DNA of 64,000 nucleotides from an uncultured Christensenellaceae bacterium (lineage in GTDB: Bacteria; Bacillota; Clostridia; Christensenellales; UBA3700): contig CALWKR010000027.1 in assembly GCA_944381315.1 (NCBI GenBank), positions 16,353-80,352 on the forward strand, given 5' to 3'. This document shows positions 5,604 to 47,355 of the stretch, one piece after another. Under the pieces are notes generated by a model. The model did not search any database. It saw nothing but the letters and a program-made list of their open reading frames with translations, and had not been told where the DNA came from. A program made the position numbers and the translations under genes. Each line of letters starts with the position of its first letter. Within the stretch, counting starts at the first letter, position 1.

Positions 5604-6992
5604 TCAATATTCCAATGCGTTGGAGAGATAGGCGTCGAGCTCGCCGATCGGGATGCGGATCTGCGACATCGTGTCGCGCTCGCGGACGGTGATCGTGCCG
5701 TTCTCGACCGTCTCGAAGTCGACGGTGACGCAATAGGGCGTGCCGATCTCGTCTTGGCGGCGATAGCGCTTGCCTATGCTGCCCGTCTCGTCGTATGTGG
5801 CGGAGAACTTCGTTGCCAGATCGCGATAGATCTTCTCTGCCTCTTCGCCGAGCGCTTTCTTTTGGAGCGGCAGCACGGCGACTTTGTAAGGAGCGATCGC
5901 GGGGTGCAGATGCATGACCACGCGCGAGTCGCCGTCTTCGAGCTCTTCTTCCTCATAGGCGTTGCACAGCAGTGCGAGCACCATTCTCTCGACGCCGAGC
6001 GAGGGCTCGATGACGTAGGGGACATATCTCTCGTTGGTAGCCGGATCGAGGTAGTCCAAGTTCTTGCCGCTGGTCTTCATATGCGCTTTGAGGTCGTAGT
6101 CGGTGCGGTCCGCGACGCCCCACAGCTCGCCCCAGCCGAACGGGAATTTGAATTCGAAGTCGGTCGTCGCGTTGGAATAGAAGGCAAGCTCTTCGGGATC
6201 GTGGTCGCGGAGCTTGAGGTTTTCCTCTTTTATGCCAAGGCCGAGCAGCCACTCTTTGCAGAAGTTCTTCCAATAGTTGAACCATTCCAAGTCGGTGCCG
6301 GGCTTGCAGAAGAATTCGAGCTCCATCTGTTCGAACTCACGGACGCGGAAGATGAAGTTGCCGGGCGTGATCTCGTTGCGGAAGCTCTTGCCGATCTGTC
6401 CGATGCCGAAGGGCACTTTGAGCCTCGAAGTGCGCTGCACGTTGAGGAAGTTGACGAAGATGCCTTGCGCGGTCTCGGGGCGCAGATAGAGGGTGCTGAC
6501 CGTGTCTTCGGTCACGCCCTGGAAGGTCTTGAACATCAAGTTGAATTGTCTCACGCCGGTGAAGTCGCTCTTGCCGCAGACGGGGCAGGGGATCTTGTGG
6601 TCGGCGATGTACTTTTCCATCTTCGCGTTGTCCCAACCGGCGATGCTCTCTTCGATGCCTTTGCGGCGCATATAGTCTTCGATGAGGTCGTCGGCGCGGT
6701 GACGGGATTTGCAATTCTTGCAATCCATAAGCGGATCGGAGAAGCCTCCGACGTGTCCGCTCGCCACCCATACGTTGGGGTTCATCAAGATCGCGCAGTC
6801 GACGCCCGTGTTGAGAGGATTCTCTTGCACGAATTTCTTCCACCAGGCGCGCTTGACGTTGTTTTTGAGCTCCACGCCCAACGGGCCGTAGTCCCAAGTG
6901 TTGGCGAGACCGCCGTAGATCTCGCTGCCGGGGAAGATGAAACCTCTGCTCTTGCAGAGGGCTACCAATTTGTCCATTGTCAGTTGTGCCAT
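5604..6992 (-). CDS. glyQS: Glycine--tRNA ligase (alpha2 homodimeric type)
   Basis: 462 aa. [45 protein letters not shown]... is an unmistakable GlyQS N-terminus. SD GAAGGAAG upstream. Confidence 0.97.
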
Positions 6993-7162
6993 ATGTACTT
7001 CCTTCGCGCTGTGTGCGCGGCATTGTCAAATCGTATAAATGATTATAAGTTGTTTGGCGGCGATTGTCAATTGATTTGGTCATCAGGAACACTTTGCGCG
7101 CGTTTTGCGTATTGTGAATTAGCAAGGGCGTGAAAACGCCCAATCATACGGGAGGTCTCAAT

Positions 7163-7327
7163 ATGAACAATTTCAACGAATGCGGATTTGGCGGCAACGA
7201 TTGCCTCTGGATCATCTTGCTCATGCTCTGCTGCGGAGGGTGCAAGGGCGGCTGCGGCTGCAACAACATCATCCCCGTGCTCGTCGCTCTGAGCTGCTGC
7301 GGCGGCAGCGATTGCGGCTGCAAATAA
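7163..7327 (+). CDS. Cys/Gly-rich 54-aa micro-protein with two short hydrophobic segments
   Basis: GGAGG at 7151-7155, 7 nt before ATG 7163. Sequence: MNNFNECGFGGNDCLWIILLMLCCGGCKGGCGCNNIIPVLVALSCCGGSDCGCK (11 Cys, 11 Gly). A terminator hairpin follows. Confidence 0.65.
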   Translation: MNNFNECGFGGNDCLWIILLMLCCGGCKGGCGCNNIIPVLVALSCCGGSDCGCK

Positions 7328-7355
7328 TACATACCGCAGGGCGGATCAGCCGATG

Positions 7356-7386
7356 GCGGCAAGGCTCGACGCTTTGCCGCTTTTTC
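7356..7386 (+). terminator. Rho-independent terminator
   Basis: GCGGCAAG (7356-7363) pairs with CTTTGCCGC (7372-7380), followed by T5 at 7381-7385. Confidence 0.65.
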
Positions 7387-7397
7387 GCGCCCGTCAA

Positions 7398-7426
7398 TTG
7401 ACAGGAGCGCCGCGCGGTGGTATCAT
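7398..7426 (+). promoter_or_regulatory. Promoter giving a probable leaderless mRNA
   Basis: TTGACA (7398-7403), 17-nt spacer, TATCAT (7421-7426). Only 6 nt (AGAGCT) separate it from ATG 7433, and there is no SD. Confidence 0.6.
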
Positions 7427-7432
7427 AGAGCT

Positions 7433-7705
7433 ATGAAAAAGTACAACTTCGTCACTTGGTGGCTCGATCTCGATCCCAAACCGCTGCCGTACAAGATCTG
7501 GAAGATGATCATCACTCCGATCATGTTCATCGCCTGGGTCACGTTCGTGGCGGTCTATCCCGATCAATATTGGACCTTTACGCTGTGCGCGGTGCTGCCC
7601 GTGGCGATCGTCGACACGGCGTGGGAAGCGTTCAATTTCCGCAATTATCGCAAAAAGCTCGCGGATAGCGGCGAGGCAGGCAAGGACGACGAAGGAGCGC
7701 GCTGA
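7433..7705 (+). CDS. Small membrane protein, hypothetical
   Basis: 90 aa. Two predicted TM helices (MIITPIMFIAWVTFVAV, FTLCAVLPVAIV) and a charged C-terminal tail. Confidence 0.6.
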   Translation: MKKYNFVTWWLDLDPKPLPYKIWKMIITPIMFIAWVTFVAVYPDQYWTFTLCAVLPVAIVDTAWEAFNFRNYRKKLADSGEAGKDDEGAR

Positions 7706-16346: not shown

Positions 16347-16760
16347 TTACAAGATATTTTTCCATTTGAAGGAGAGCAGATTTTTGCTGTTCTCTGCAAG
16401 CGCGGCGATCATCTTTGCGCGAGCCACCGCGTCGTCATCGAGCTGCGCCTGCAAGTCTCCCGACAATTCGCCCAACTGGGGCATTATGTCCTTGACGTCG
16501 GCATTGGGATACATGAATTCGAGTACGTCGCGCGTGTGCGCCCATTGCTCGCGCATTGCGTCCGCGAGCTCCAAAGCGGCTGCGTCGTCGCCTTCGTTTA
16601 TCGCGGCTATCACGCGGTCGCATTGATCGCATATGTCGTCAAAGGCGTCATTCATATAGACCTCTTCCGCGATCCCGAACGCGAGGATCGCCGCCGTCAG
16701 CCCGAGCGCTATCGTCAGCTTGATCCAAAAAAAGTAGTTGGGCTTGGTGCCGCACCTCAT
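16347..16760 (-). CDS. DUF4363 family protein
   Basis: 137 aa, N-terminal TM. It forms the typical partnership (here a 4-nt overlap) with a DUF421 protein. Confidence 0.7.
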   Translation of the reverse strand: MRCGTKPNYFFWIKLTIALGLTAAILAFGIAEEVYMNDAFDDICDQCDRVIAAINEGDDAAALELADAMREQWAHTRDVLEFMYPNADVKDIMPQLGELSGDLQAQLDDDAVARAKMIAALAENSKNLLSFKWKNIL

Positions 16761-17419
16761 TGCGCGCTCTCCACAAGGAATTTGCCGCGGCGCGGCTGCA
16801 AGTAGTATTCGCCGTTGCCGAGGTCGGTCATCAACAGCACTTGCTTGGGCGAAAGTTCGTGGCGGCTCAATACGCTGCGCAGCTTGGCTTCGTCAAAGCC
16901 GCTCTTGTCCAAGTTGTCGTTCATCAATTTGCCGTCGCAGATGAGAGTGTAGGGGATGTCGCGCGGAGCGGGGCGCTCGTCGTCCGTGATCACGGACAGA
17001 TCGCCGTTGGTCTCGACGATCGCATAGCGCACGCAGTCGGGCGAGAATACATCCTTGCTGCGCAGAGCCTCGTTGAGATCGCCGGCAGTCATTTCGAGCT
17101 TGTCGAGAGCGTCGCCGTCGATGCCGTCGGGAGTGATCACGATGACGGGCTTGCCGTTTATCGCACGGCGGAGCTTGACGGACTTCTTGACCATGATCGT
17201 GATCGCGACTTCGGCAATGAACAGCGCGAATATCGGCACGAGACCGTAGACGATCGGCACCTGCGTGTCCGACATCGGGATGCACGCGAGATCTGCCGCG
17301 ACCAACGTGATCGCGAGCTCGAAAGGCTGCAATTCGCCGAGCTGCTTTTTGCCCATAAGCCTAAGTATGATAAGCAAAAACGCATATATTATCAATGTTC
17401 TCACAAACGCCGTCAGCAT
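16757..17419 (-). CDS. DUF421 (YetF-like) membrane protein
   Basis: MLTAFVRTLIIYAFLLIILRLMGKKQLGELQPFELAI... is a typical DUF421 N-terminus. I prefer ATG 17419 over the upstream GTG 17443. Confidence 0.8.
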   Translation of the reverse strand: MLTAFVRTLIIYAFLLIILRLMGKKQLGELQPFELAITLVAADLACIPMSDTQVPIVYGLVPIFALFIAEVAITIMVKKSVKLRRAINGKPVIVITPDGIDGDALDKLEMTAGDLNEALRSKDVFSPDCVRYAIVETNGDLSVITDDERPAPRDIPYTLICDGKLMNDNLDKSGFDEAKLRSVLSRHELSPKQVLLMTDLGNGEYYLQPRRGKFLVESAQ

Positions 17420-17480
17420 ACCGATATTGTGCGCCTGCCGCACGCTTGTATGCGAATTTTCGGCGAGTGGGCGAAAACGA

Positions 17481-18409: not shown

Positions 18410-19900
18410 CTACTTTCGCAACAGTGCGGCGACGTCGCGGCGCGTGATCGTACCGCTCAGCACGATGTAGAGCGCACAGAAGATCAAAGCGACCACGCCC
18501 GTCACGGCGATCGGCACGAGCGGATGCAGCCGAGACATCAGCGAGGACAGTTGGGACAGCGCAAAAGCCGTGATCGCTGCAAACAAGATCAGCGCCGCGA
18601 GCTGTATCGTCGTTTCGGAAGGGAGATGCGAGTATTTGTGCATAAACAGCAGGTAGGCGCCGAGCGACAGCGTCTGCGCGGCGAGCATCGCGATGAAATA
18701 AGCGTAGATTCCGCAGCTCGAGACGAGCGCCGCCATCAATGCGGCGAGCAACAGCGAGCTTGCCGTACCGGTCGCGAAAGTCAGGCTTTCCTTGCCCAAA
18801 GAGTTGAGCACGGACGTGCAAATGCCGTTGAGGCACATAGGGATCATCGCCGCGCTGGCGACGGAAAGATATTTGCCGGCTGTCGCGTCGTCATAGAGCA
18901 GATTGCCGATCTGCTCGCCGCACGCACAGAAGACAACGAAGAAGAATGCGCTGACGCAGGCGGCGAATTTGACTGCCATTGCGCTCGTGCGCGCGATCTC
19001 GGCGTTGTTGCCCGTTGCGCTCATCGACGCAAGCTCGGGGATCATCACTACGGCGAGGGAGCCTGTCAGCGAAGACGGGATGAACAGCAGAGGCATGACC
19101 ATGCCGCTCGCTCTTCCGAATTCCGCAGTCGCCTGCGCTGCCGTCAAGCCGCAAAGCGAGACGAGCAGAGCAGGAAGGAGAAGAGAGTTGAGAGTGCCTA
19201 TGCCGCTGCCGACGACTCGTGCCGCAGTGAGGGGCGCGGCAGAGGCGAGCACCTTGCGCGCTCCGTGCGGCTTGGCGATCTTGCCGCCTGCGGCGAAATA
19301 GCATACGACGAGCACTGCGACGACGACTACGTCGCCTCCGACAAGCGCGTAGGCATAGGCGGAGTTGTCGGCAAATGCAATGCCCAAACCGCTGATAAAC
19401 AACACGGACAGGATAATTTTGGAGATTTCGTCCAGCAGTTCGGTCGCCGCGAAGACAGCGTAATTCCTCTCGCCCCAAAAACGTCCGCGCAGCGTCGCAT
19501 AGATCGAAGTCGTCGCGAGCAGCGGCAGGCAGGCATAGAACACGGGCACGCATCGGCGATCGGAGAAGATCGCCGAGATCGCGTCGGGAAAGGCGAGCGC
19601 GGCAAGAGTGAGGGCAAGCGCGGCGCCGGAAGATATGAGCAGGCACAGCGACGTCAGACTGTCGCTGCGGCGAGTGTCGCCGAGAGCTTTGTTCTCGGCA
19701 GAGAGGCGCGATAGCGTCACCGGCAGGCCGCTGCTGCCTATGCACGACATCAGCGACAGCACGGACAGGGCGATCTGATAGAGTCCGAGGACTTCGGCGC
19801 CTAGCTCGCGCGAGAGATAGATCTTGAAGAAGAAGGACATCAGCCGCGTAGCCACCGACACGGCGGTGACCAGCGCGAATGCCTTGACGACGCGTTTCAT
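18410..19900 (-). CDS. MOP-superfamily polysaccharide/lipid II flippase (SpoVB/MurJ-like)
   Basis: About 496 aa with many TM helices. MKRVVKAFALVTAVSVATRLMSFFFKIYLSRELGAEVLGLYQIALSV... is typical of polysaccharide biosynthesis proteins and SpoVB. Confidence 0.8.
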   Translation of the reverse strand: MKRVVKAFALVTAVSVATRLMSFFFKIYLSRELGAEVLGLYQIALSVLSLMSCIGSSGLPVTLSRLSAENKALGDTRRSDSLTSLCLLISSGAALALTLAALAFPDAISAIFSDRRCVPVFYACLPLLATTSIYATLRGRFWGERNYAVFAATELLDEISKIILSVLFISGLGIAFADNSAYAYALVGGDVVVVAVLVVCYFAAGGKIAKPHGARKVLASAAPLTAARVVGSGIGTLNSLLLPALLVSLCGLTAAQATAEFGRASGMVMPLLFIPSSLTGSLAVVMIPELASMSATGNNAEIARTSAMAVKFAACVSAFFFVVFCACGEQIGNLLYDDATAGKYLSVASAAMIPMCLNGICTSVLNSLGKESLTFATGTASSLLLAALMAALVSSCGIYAYFIAMLAAQTLSLGAYLLFMHKYSHLPSETTIQLAALILFAAITAFALSQLSSLMSRLHPLVPIAVTGVVALIFCALYIVLSGTITRRDVAALLRK

Positions 19901-19905
19901 ACGCA

Positions 19906-19935
19906 ATTATATGACTTGCGGCGAGCGCCTATGAA
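19906..19935 (-). promoter_or_regulatory. Promoter giving a probable leaderless mRNA (flippase)
   Basis: Read on the minus strand: TTCATA, 18-nt spacer, TATAAT (rc of 19906-19911), then TGCGT, then ATG at 19900. No SD. Confidence 0.45.
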
Positions 19936-28938: not shown

Positions 28939-29202
28939 GTGGAGATGGAAGAGATGACGACGCGCGCCCGTGAAGAGGCGCGCTACATATCGGAGACAGG
29001 GTGTACGCTGAGAGCTTGCGCCGCCGTGTTCGGAGTCGGCAAAAGCACCGTGCATACCGACGTGACCAAGCGGCTCAAAGACGTCGATCCCGTGCTGTAC
29101 GCCCAAGTCGAGCAGGTGCTGGGAGCCAATCTTGCGGACAGACATCTGCGCGGAGGGCGCAGTACAAAGCTCAAATATCTGAGAGAGAAAAAACAGAGTT
29201 AA
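28939..29202 (+). CDS. spoIIID: Sporulation transcriptional regulator SpoIIID
   Basis: ...ISETGCTLRACAAVFGVGKSTVHTDVTKRLKDVDPVLYAQVEQVL...RHLRGGRSTKLKY matches the SpoIIID HTH and basic tail. The start is ambiguous (GTG 28939, ATG 28945 or ATG 28954). Confidence 0.9.
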   Translation: MEMEEMTTRAREEARYISETGCTLRACAAVFGVGKSTVHTDVTKRLKDVDPVLYAQVEQVLGANLADRHLRGGRSTKLKYLREKKQS

Positions 29203-41455: not shown

Positions 41456-41725
41456 TCATTGCGCGTTCTTCAATTCGTTCTCATATTCTTTGAGGATCGT
41501 ATCGGAGAAGAGCTCGCGTGTCTCCGTGTCGAGGGGATGCGCGATGTCGCGATAGTGTCCCTCCGGAGTTTTGCGGCTGGGCATCGAGATGAAGAGCCCT
41601 GCCTTTCCTTGGATGATCTTGATGTCATGAAGGACAAAGCATCCGTCGATCACGACCGAAGCGACCGCTTTGAGCAGTTCGTTGTCCTTTGTCACCAACC
41701 TTATCTTTACGTCACTGAGTTGCAT
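41456..41725 (-). CDS. spoVG: Septation/sporulation regulator SpoVG
   Basis: MQLSDVKIRLVTKDNELLKAVASVVIDGCFVLHDIKIIQGKAGLFISMPSRKTPEGHYRDIAHPL. The start is placed at ATG 41725, after GGGAG. Confidence 0.93.
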   Translation of the reverse strand: MQLSDVKIRLVTKDNELLKAVASVVIDGCFVLHDIKIIQGKAGLFISMPSRKTPEGHYRDIAHPLDTETRELFSDTILKEYENELKNAQ

Positions 41726-42027
41726 ATACACACTCCCAAAAATTAATTATCTTAATTATATTATGATGTCATTTTTTTGGCAAGGATTTTGGCGTCAAAA
41801 ATCAAAAATTTCGTAAATTTGCGTGCAAACAACGCATTTGCGACAAAAAAGGTACTTTGTTTGTACCTCACATGGCGACCGTTTTGTGCATAAGTGTTGC
41901 CGAACGTACAAACATTGCCGCCCCGAGCGCGCCCTTTTTGACAAAAGCTTGCGATATCGGCGCTCGGGATCCGAGCAAGCGCGCCGTCCGACGGTACAAC
42001 GCGCGTTCGACGCGCATATAATAGAGT

Positions 42028-46143: not shown

Positions 46144-47355
46144 ATGGCACGACTATCTTACAAGCACACGCTTGCCGCGTGTTTCATCGGTTACATCACA
46201 CAGGCGATAATCAACAATTTCGCGCCTTTGCTTTTCCTCACTTTTCAGACGGAGTTCGAGATCGGATTGGACAAGATAACCATGCTCGTCACGATCAACT
46301 TTTTGACTCAGTTGCTCGTCGACATGATCTCCGCCAAGGCTGTGGACAGGATAGGTTACAAGCCCAGCATAATCTTTGCGCACATATGCTGTGCCGTGGG
46401 ACTTGTCGGGCTTGCCGTATTCCCGTCGGCAGGCGATCCCTATGTCGGACTCGTCGTCGCCGTTGTCATCTATGCGATAGGCGGCGGCTTGATCGAGGTG
46501 TTGATCAGCCCCATCGCGCAGGCTTGCCCGACCGACGACAAGACGGGCGCGATGAGCCTGCTCCATTCCTTTTTCTGCTGGGGCAGCGCGGCCGTGATCC
46601 TGCTCTCGACTTTGATCTTGGCGGCAGTGGGACAGAGCAATTGGCGCTGGCTCTCGATCGCGTGGGCTGTCGTGCCTATCTTCAATGCGATCTACTTTGT
46701 GCTCGTCCCCGTCAACAAGCTGCCCGAAGAAGAGGGCGGAGTCAAGCTGACCAAGCTGCTCGGTTCGGGGATCTTTTGGCTGCTGCTGCTGATGATGGTA
46801 TGCTCGGGCGCGTCGGAACTTGCGATGAGCCAATGGGCGTCCGCGTTCGCGGAGAGCGGACTCGGCGTCTCCAAGGCGATGGGAGACCTGTTCGGCCCCT
46901 GCTTGTTCGCGGTGCTTATGGGCATTGCGCGCGTGCTGTATGCGCGCTTCGGCGCAAGGCTCAACGCTCCGATCACGATCGCGTGCAGCTGCGCTCTGTG
47001 CGTGATCTCCTATGTCCTCGCCGCGTTCGCGCCGATACCCGTCGTCGGACTCATCGGCTGCGCTCTATGCGGCTTTTCGGTCGGCATATTTTGGCCGGCG
47101 ACGTTCAGTCTCGGGATAGGGCGGCTGCCCAAAGGCGGCACCGCGCTCTTTGCGCTGCTTTCCCTTGCCGGCGACTTGGGTTGTACGGGCGGTCCCACTC
47201 TCGTCGGACTGATCTCCGACGCCGAGGGCGGCAGCCTTTCGAGCGGACTCGCTTTCGCCATGATCTTCCCGATACTGCTTGCGATATGTTCGTTCGTATT
47301 GCTTGCGATCTCGCGCAGAGAGAAAAAGCGTGCGCTCTCAGACGGTCTGAAATGA
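46144..47355 (+). CDS. MFS transporter
   Basis: Start at ATG 46144 (MARLSYKHTLAACFIGYITQAIINNFAPLLF...). About 12 TM helices. Confidence 0.85.
   Translation: MARLSYKHTLAACFIGYITQAIINNFAPLLFLTFQTEFEIGLDKITMLVTINFLTQLLVDMISAKAVDRIGYKPSIIFAHICCAVGLVGLAVFPSAGDPYVGLVVAVVIYAIGGGLIEVLISPIAQACPTDDKTGAMSLLHSFFCWGSAAVILLSTLILAAVGQSNWRWLSIAWAVVPIFNAIYFVLVPVNKLPEEEGGVKLTKLLGSGIFWLLLLMMVCSGASELAMSQWASAFAESGLGVSKAMGDLFGPCLFAVLMGIARVLYARFGARLNAPITIACSCALCVISYVLAAFAPIPVVGLIGCALCGFSVGIFWPATFSLGIGRLPKGGTALFALLSLAGDLGCTGGPTLVGLISDAEGGSLSSGLAFAMIFPILLAICSFVLLAISRREKKRALSDGLK

Follow-up and report, generated by a model that had tools for sequence, protein, structure and literature searches.

Beside the glycyl-tRNA synthetase gene glyQS, in a 64,000-nucleotide stretch of DNA from an uncultured Christensenellaceae bacterium (contig CALWKR010000027.1; "the window" denotes this whole stretch), lies a divergently oriented open reading frame (ORF) of 54 codons, and the question raised by the locus is whether this micro-ORF is a gene and what its small, hydrophobic, Cys- and Gly-rich product might do. 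We found that it is a real, strongly selected gene, and that its product is a member of an uncharacterized, Clostridia-wide protein family. The function that we favor, to which we assign slightly less than an even chance, is that of a hydrophobic, thiol-rich micro-protein of the spore envelope produced late in sporulation, analogous but not homologous to the YjcZ proteins of Bacilli. The micro-ORF had been singled out in an earlier note on this DNA, and on re-reading, its extent and the quoted peptide, with 11 Cys and 11 Gly by count, matched exactly (Table 1).

The earlier note had remarked that a missing translation signal and a lack of conservation in relatives would speak against a gene; we found instead that the ORF, its ATG, its Shine-Dalgarno (SD) sequence and a terminator are conserved on the plus strand in about 14 species. 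The SD sequence is as strong, and spaced by 7 nt, as had been claimed. The terminator attributed to the ORF is likewise present, although a simple consensus scan overlooked it: its 11-bp stem followed by U5 has a folding energy of -21.2 kcal/mol (z = -3.5 versus shuffled sequences), and terminator hairpins with T-runs follow the micro-ORF in most related loci. The start kept among the relatives is MNNF, and the GTG at 7130 given as the start in the ORF list is a mechanical upstream extension. Since the next gene downstream (7433-7705, +) has its own promoter, TTGACA-17-TATCAT at 7398-7426, the micro-ORF is monocistronic.

A codon-level comparison in the plus frame (Nei-Gojobori method) yielded ratios of nonsynonymous to synonymous substitution rates (dN/dS) of 0.06-0.27, at dS values of ~0.75-3.3, which are saturated. 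Six variants (P0002, P0004, P0008, P0019, P0027 and P0082) were left out of this selection analysis; their C-termini are scrambled or extended, or Cys residues are replaced by Gly, Ser or Ala, and they look like frameshift or sequencing-error forms rather than true isoforms. One of them, P0004, comes from a low-coverage assembly (contig coverage 4.5). Close homologues, 56-98% identical, occur in metagenomes and metagenome-assembled genomes (MAGs), and when one genome of each GTDB species was scanned, 21 loci were identified, with a single copy per genome. The top two hits, with 98% protein identity, were in Ca. Ornithoclostridium faecigallinarum and in a complete 1.8-Mb chromosome labeled "uncultured Christensenellaceae" (OZ006985.1), which assigns the window to this Christensenellales lineage of the chicken gut; the same subfamily was found in ~12 further Christensenellales or Clostridia species. 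By tblastn, the 64-kb window contains no paralogue of the micro-ORF; the sole other weak match (46762-46809) was rejected, as it corresponds to a transmembrane helix of an MFS-like transporter.

These data leave almost no probability for a non-gene, whether the ORF had arisen by chance in GC-rich intergenic DNA or the antisense 72-a.a. ORF (7144-7362, -) were the true gene. At 57% GC short ORFs are indeed common, and the GC content at third codon positions is also high in the antisense ORF, but the low dN/dS in the plus frame at saturated dS, the conserved signals on the plus strand and the presence of protein-level homologues across Clostridia all oppose a chance origin. The antisense ORF is not a gene; its high third-position GC is a mirror effect of the Cys and Gly codons (TGC/GGC).

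To what family does the product belong? A word-indexed profile search retrieved 244 proteins, and 11 were retrieved when 1.8 billion representatives were searched exhaustively with a profile. All named homologues among the 244 are annotated by NCBI as "chorion class high-cysteine HCB protein 13", so that the suspicion of the earlier note, that tiny Cys-rich proteins of Clostridia carry spurious automatic names, proved right. Their hosts include Faecalicatena contorta (WP_235249570.1), [Ruminococcus] torques (WP_412575827.1), Dorea, Roseburia, Faecalimonas, Anaerotignum and unnamed Lachnospiraceae or Eubacteriales. Proteins under this name, such as the two with accessions, are true homologues of the window protein, but the name itself derives from a silkmoth eggshell protein and reflects the Cys/Gly composition, not function. 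No Pfam family supported a chorion homology, the name is an automatic label on bacterial proteins only, the only paper found with the wording "chorion class high-cysteine HCB" concerns Bombyx mori, and our literature search found no paper on the bacterial family. These named relatives start with MSDLSATN..., whereas the subfamily of the window, unnamed in the sources, starts with MNNF... and has a diverged second repeat. An hmmscan of the window protein and eight relatives against Pfam and NCBIfam (E <= 10) returned nothing meaningful, including no match to YjcZ, SCIFF, metallothionein, CYSTM or PF12669, with the proviso that composition filters could mask very weak matches. In databases, members of the family are either left uncalled or filed under a misleading automatic label, and the family has no profile model.

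The family unit consists of a Gly/Asn/Cys-rich linker, a very hydrophobic run of 9-12 residues (C-[LI]-W-I-I-L-L-L-x) and a CCGG(C)G thiol cluster, and it is present in two copies. In the distant members, which are 66-106 a.a. long, the two units are near-identical (GGNNSC[IL]WIILLLxCCGGCG). In a 70-sequence alignment, the second segment of the window protein, NIIPVLVALSCCGG, was matched to the second of the two C[IL]WIILLLxCCGGCG repeats in these relatives, indicating that the window protein is a two-repeat member. The internal duplication that the earlier note had read from the single peptide is therefore real, and in the Christensenellales clade of the window the second copy has diverged to NIIPVLVALSCCGG. 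A CCGG thiol cluster follows each hydrophobic segment, and the C/G/N linkers between the segments are low-complexity and indel-prone, with protein lengths of 54-61 a.a. within the clade; we count such linkers as a feature of structural proteins. The uncharged hydrophobic runs are ~14 residues each (D13-K28 and N35-D50), which is short for spanning a bilayer. From the same alignment, AlphaFold2 predicted only two short helices (13-24 and 36-46), at low confidence.

New evidence on function comes from the DNA upstream of the micro-ORF. In the upstream alignment, a −35-like GTAACAC or GGAACAC is kept in all 14 Christensenellales loci, and TGCGTATTGTG is invariant in the 14 species, despite identities of only 58-98% between their proteins and that of the window. 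Loci of the Lachnospiraceae type have an equivalent (A/C)AC(A/C) at the same spacing, and seven of nine distant two-repeat loci carry AC-N16/17-CATAnnnT(A/G) at the same position, the other two having AC-N16-CGTAnnnTA. The −10 boxes of the canonical distant loci read CATAATATA (with the AC-16 spacing), CATATTATG, CATATGATG, CATATAGTA and CATAAGTTA. A relaxed motif, AC-N16/17-C(A/G)TAnnnT(A/G), was present in 22/22 loci, starting 57-78 nt upstream of the ATG, against a background of 0.12 per kb in ~482 kb of the same loci, or ~0.015 expected per 120-nt upstream region. The sigma-K consensus that we used is that of C. difficile, in which mapped sigma-E and sigma-K promoters share a common −10 element (CATATTAT/CATATAAT) and are distinguished at −35 by ATA in sigma-E promoters and AC in those of sigma-K (PMC3789822). 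Because the −35 of the family is consistently (A/C)AC(A/C), the promoter would be of the type recognized by sigma-K, the late mother-cell sigma factor, and judged by its motif the micro-ORF promoter in Lachnospiraceae is of canonical sigma-K type. Readings of the upstream block as a sigma-H, sigma-54, sigma-F/G or sigma-E promoter were rejected by eye, as they fit the spacing and the invariant bases more poorly than a sigma-K-like or a weak sigma-A promoter.

Table 1 Features of the micro-ORF locus and sporulation-associated genes of the window (positions in the window)
Feature	Position	Strand	Remarks
glyQS (class II glycyl-tRNA synthetase)	5604..6992	-	conserved divergent neighbor
−35-like element GGAACAC	7086..7092	+	AC at 7089-7090, 17 nt upstream of the −10 block
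Invariant block TTTGCGTATTGTG	7104..7116	+	includes −10-like CGTATTGTG at 7108-7116
5' untranslated region (5'-UTR) hairpin GGGCG-UGAAAA-CGCCC	7126..7141	+	in the minimum-free-energy structure; ~8 nt upstream of the SD sequence
SD sequence GGGAGG	7150..7155	+	7 nt ahead of the ATG; GGAGG kept in all loci
Coding sequence of the 54-a.a. micro-protein, MNNFNECGFGGNDCLWIILLMLCCGGCKGGCGCNNIIPVLVALSCCGGSDCGCK	7163..7327	+	ATG at 7163, TAA at 7325-7327, 54 codons
Repeat 1 of the micro-protein	7190-7261	+	residues ~10-33
Diverged repeat 2 of the micro-protein	7262-7324	+	residues ~34-54
Conserved 3'-UTR block TACATACCGCAG	7328..7339	+	directly 3' of the stop codon
Rho-independent terminator	7355..7385	+	stem 7355-7380 (11 bp, 5-nt loop), U5 at 7381-7385
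DUF4363 + YetF/DUF421 pair	16347-17443	-	
SpoVB-like flippase	18410-19906	-	182 bits vs cut-off 372
SpoIIID-like regulator, 87 a.a.	28939-29202	+	TIGR02844, full-length, E = 5e-24, 84 bits vs cut-off 111.5
SpoVG	41456-41731	-	

The same upstream DNA also provides an argument for the main rival explanation, in which the product is a vegetative small membrane protein, driven by sigma-A and folded as a helical hairpin in the cytoplasmic membrane, whose thiols buffer or sense metal or redox state or which modulates a larger membrane protein, a role played by many small membrane proteins of bacteria. A TATTGT lies within the invariant block and has the A of position 2 and the T of position 6, and a TTGACA-like GTAACA lies 18 nt upstream; in addition, most of the clade is predicted not to sporulate, its neighboring genes are housekeeping genes (glyQS, an ECF S-component gene, coaX, hom and uvrB), and two short hydrophobic helices are what the structure prediction shows. 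On the other side, the homologous promoter in Lachnospiraceae fits the canonical sigma-K-type AC/CATAnnnTA and has no TTGACA-like −35, a consensus sigma-70 scan detected no plus-strand promoter upstream of the ORF, the uncharged runs are short for crossing a bilayer, and no known small-membrane-protein, metallothionein or FeoB-associated Cys-rich family was matched. We regard this explanation as unlikely on the whole, but as especially plausible should sporulation have been lost in this lineage and the promoter re-wired; in lineages that no longer sporulate, the conserved variant promoter CGTATTGTG could mark such a re-wiring to a vegetative role.

Several points weigh against the spore-envelope function that we favor. 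In the window, the promoter would be AC(7089)-17-CGTATTGTG, and this −10 of the window clade differs from the consensus CATAnnnTA in two of the specified positions; a reading of the sequence as a weak sigma-A promoter, GTAACA-18-TATTGT, is also possible. No regulon emerged in the window: TTTGCGTATTGTG with up to three mismatches (<=3) gave 19 matches versus 13.9 expected, and AC-N17-CGTAnnnTR gave 2 versus 1.5 expected. The matches of the SpoIIID-like and SpoVB-like proteins fall below the NCBI curated cut-offs. The AlphaFold2 model is of low confidence (predicted local distance difference test score 53, predicted template modeling score 0.26), and the disulfide or metal chemistry is deduced purely from composition. 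Finally, predictions for Christensenellales MAGs give a non-sporulating majority and a sporulating minority, and the Christensenella isolates are described as non-spore-forming (PMC12536801; PMC11536998).

Does the window nevertheless belong to a sporulating lineage? The SpoIIID-like gene suggests that the mother-cell programme of sporulation has been retained in this lineage, at least in part. The DUF4363 and YetF/DUF421 pair, the SpoVB-like flippase and SpoVG represent sporulation-associated families, none of which is decisive for spore formation, and no sigma factor gene was seen within the 64-kb window. The regions upstream of the SpoIIID-like, SpoVB-like and DUF421 genes of the window contained no convincing matching promoter.

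The conserved surroundings of the family fall into two independent neighborhoods, the glyQS side in Christensenellales and a gene pair followed by truA and feoB in Lachnospiraceae. As the earlier note had stated, the micro-ORF is divergent from glyQS, and its suggestion to examine whether this position is conserved led to a positive answer: ~14 Christensenellales species have the micro-ORF in the same position, which is kept wherever the close homologues have flanking DNA. The Christensenellales neighborhood comprises the divergent glyQS and, downstream, genes for a small membrane protein and an ECF/TspO-like protein, then coaX, hom and uvrB.

The Lachnospiraceae neighborhood has, downstream of the micro-ORF, a gene pair that is conserved in 7-8 loci, and then truA and feoB. 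Ahead of the pair, ACATATT-N14-CATATA.. occurs in five of the six loci examined, which reads as a sigma-E-like promoter with an ATA-type −35; with such a promoter, the micro-ORF and the gene pair would form a small mother-cell gene cluster. The pair, in which no Pfam or NCBIfam domain was found, may encode unrecognized sporulation proteins. Its members are ~170-276 a.a. and ~95 a.a. long (L014 6594-7429; L015 6668-7697; also L027, L029, L030, L031 and L036), and tblastn with both (p169/p95) detected no homologues, whether in the window or among the Christensenellales loci. Some Lachnospiraceae loci also have a conserved 50-51-a.a. ORF convergent with the micro-ORF (L014 6308-6460, -; L015/L016 6343-6498, -), which encodes M(S/R)xKLII(D/E)GNAVYEIDE(Q/D)CML... 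with a Lys/Glu-rich tail and has no family match. The putative sigma-K-type promoter, the linkage in Lachnospiraceae to an apparent sigma-E-type operon and the order-wide synteny with glyQS are new observations.

The glyQS promoter lies inside the intergenic region common to both genes, as a perfect TTGACA-17-TATAAT at 7070..7042 (-). A T-box leader usually controls glyQS in Firmicutes. Here, the promoter is only ~50 nt from the glyQS start codon, leaving no room for a T-box leader, and the same short layout is kept in related loci. An Rfam scan of 6900-7500 at E <= 10 returned only sub-threshold noise, with no T-box, riboswitch or known small RNA.

The transcript of the micro-ORF has conserved features of its own. 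If transcription starts ~7 nt after the −10 element, the RNA would begin just ahead of the conserved 5'-UTR hairpin, which would then act as a 5'-terminal stabilizer of the mRNA. The stems of this hairpin differ in sequence yet pair across the loci (GGGCG/CGCCC, GAGCGG/CCGCTC, CGGG/CCCG, AACGG/CCGTT, GGCG/CGCC and GGCGG/CCGTC), the stem being weak in L033. Conservation just after the stop codon was seen in L021, L022 and L024-L026 besides the window; this 3'-UTR block takes the form TAATACATAC(C/T)GCA in the clade of the window and a related form, GTACAT..TAGGG(C/T)GCG, in the sister clade. The block may serve for RNA binding or processing, or contribute to a second hairpin.

That the small hydrophobic ORF stands alone, has a structured 5'-UTR and is followed by an unexplained conserved 3'-UTR block might also point to a type I toxin, a peptide that damages membranes and is kept from being translated by an antisense RNA or by folding of the 5'-UTR, and such systems are present in Clostridia (PMC6563280). 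We consider this highly improbable. The SD sequence is free of the conserved hairpin, and no sigma-70-like minus-strand promoter reading into the ORF was detected in 7163-7700, a scan that weak or non-canonical promoters could escape. Furthermore, deep conservation as a single syntenic copy under strong purifying selection across orders is atypical of such toxins, the peptide has no charged, Lys-rich tail, and its Cys/Gly-rich repeats are unlike known toxins.

Small size and a high Cys content are equally features of precursors of ribosomally synthesized and post-translationally modified peptides (RiPPs), including bacteriocins, and the micro-protein could in principle have its Cys residues modified (thioether, sactionine or thiazole) and be exported by enzymes encoded elsewhere. 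A short conserved N-terminus, MSDLSATNCGCGC, in the Lachnospiraceae members would be compatible with this, and SCIFF sets a precedent for ubiquitous Cys-rich RiPP precursors in Clostridia (10.1101/494179). SCIFF and the micro-protein are both small, Cys-rich and widespread in Clostridia, and the biological function of SCIFF is likewise unknown; however, SCIFF always lies beside a radical-SAM maturase and matches TIGR03973, neither of which applies to the micro-protein, and it has no hydrophobic segments. The earlier note had seen no modification, export or immunity genes next to the ORF, and the absence extends beyond the window: across >20 related loci of the two neighborhoods, viewed with flanks of 5-6 kb, no radical-SAM, LanM/LanBC or YcaO enzyme, peptidase-ABC exporter or immunity gene occurs within ~6 kb. 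In addition, neither SCIFF nor any other precursor family of NCBIfam or Pfam was matched at E <= 10, no leader or motif for cleavage can be recognized, conservation is highest in the hydrophobic cores, unlike in a RiPP core, and the gene is single-copy with order-wide synteny beside housekeeping genes. The chance that the family consists of RiPP precursors is therefore slim.

How would a late-sporulation spore-envelope protein of this kind work? We infer the sigma factor, the expression timing, the localization and the cross-linking or metal chemistry, and hence the function, from promoter motifs and composition only. A monocistronic mRNA, stabilized by its 5'-terminal hairpin and equipped with a strong SD sequence and its own terminator, would be highly expressed, and a mother-cell promoter of sigma-K type would place this expression late in endospore formation. 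The product would then be a structural micro-protein of the outer forespore membrane, the coat or the exosporium, in which two short greasy helices, arranged as a helical hairpin, may bury it in a membrane or in a hydrophobic protein matrix. On exposure of the spore to oxidizing conditions outside the anoxic gut, the ~11 thiols of the protein might become cross-linked as disulfides or metal thiolates. It would thus act in the manner of Cys-rich proteins of coat and exosporium and of the sigma-K-dependent YjcZ of Bacilli, being a member of neither group. Among the roles that the earlier note had listed, that of a spore component is favored by the promoter evidence, whereas a lipidated protein is unlikely: on direct reading of the sequence there is no lipobox, signal peptide for Sec or signal-peptidase I site, the N-terminus MNNFNECGFGGND is acidic or neutral where a signal peptide would have a positively charged n-region, and the residues before C23 are L-M-L, not a lipobox [LVI][ASTVI][GAS]C, in which position −1 must be G, A or S.

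The YjcZ family ("tiny_TM_bacill", TIGR01732/PF09680) comprises ~50-a.a. proteins with a Gly-rich stretch and a hydrophobic segment that is too short for a classical transmembrane helix. Bacillus yjcZ has been assigned to the sigma-K regulon (PMC517825), providing a precedent for a tiny hydrophobic product of late sporulation. Like the micro-protein, YjcZ is a small stand-alone protein of Firmicutes, and its function is also unknown. The micro-protein differs in having two hydrophobic units and ~20% Cys, in occurring in Clostridia rather than Bacilli, and in its lack of a match to the YjcZ hidden Markov model (HMM) at E <= 10; moreover, Bacillus genomes each carry several yjcZ paralogues, whereas our scan found one copy of the micro-ORF per genome.

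In CotY/CotZ of B. subtilis and CdeC and CdeM of C. difficile, the high Cys content is thought to cross-link the outer spore layers. The genes for coat and exosporium proteins are controlled by sigma-K (PMC3789822). The micro-protein shares with these four the high Cys content and, as proposed, late mother-cell expression; they are, however, soluble, self-assembling proteins of 15-45 kDa, while the family studied here has hydrophobic repeats of 5-8 kDa in total and no sequence similarity to them. PF12669 (FeoB-associated Cys-rich) and the eukaryotic CYSTM (PF12734) are very small proteins with one short hydrophobic helix and a Cys/Gly cluster. Both offer an architectural analogy without an HMM match, and CYSTM proteins are eukaryotic and tail-anchored. 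No feoB lies near the micro-ORF in the window, and in the Lachnospiraceae loci feoB is ~2.5 kb, or 3-4 genes, away.

Most gut Clostridia rely on spores to survive oxygen and to move from host to host. Hardly any studies have addressed the outer layers of the spores of commensal Lachnospiraceae and Christensenellales, and Christensenellales members are of interest for host metabolic health. If the link to sporulation proves wrong, the micro-protein would still be a strongly selected, thiol-rich membrane protein beside glyQS across an order. A broader proposal, possible if rather doubtful, is that nearly all gut Clostridia (Lachnospirales, Christensenellales and others) build their spore envelope with the CxWIILLL-CCGG two-repeat proteins as a hitherto unrecognized block, which would form a thiol lattice embedded in membrane or coat and hardened, on contact of the spore with oxygen, by disulfide or metal-thiolate cross-linking. 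Such a block would have been missed both by annotation, with no HMM, a spurious name at NCBI and no gene call in many MAG annotations, and by standard proteomics; the single internal Lys/Arg (a Lys in the window protein) would make the peptide nearly invisible to tryptic proteomics, as trypsin yields only hydrophobic, Cys-rich fragments of 26-28 a.a., which fits with the family having gone unnoticed. If the spore-envelope function is correct, an order-crossing protein of 5-8 kDa with ~20% Cys would be a candidate oxygen-triggered cross-linker or hydrophobic surface component of the spore, and could affect spore resistance, adhesion and germination.

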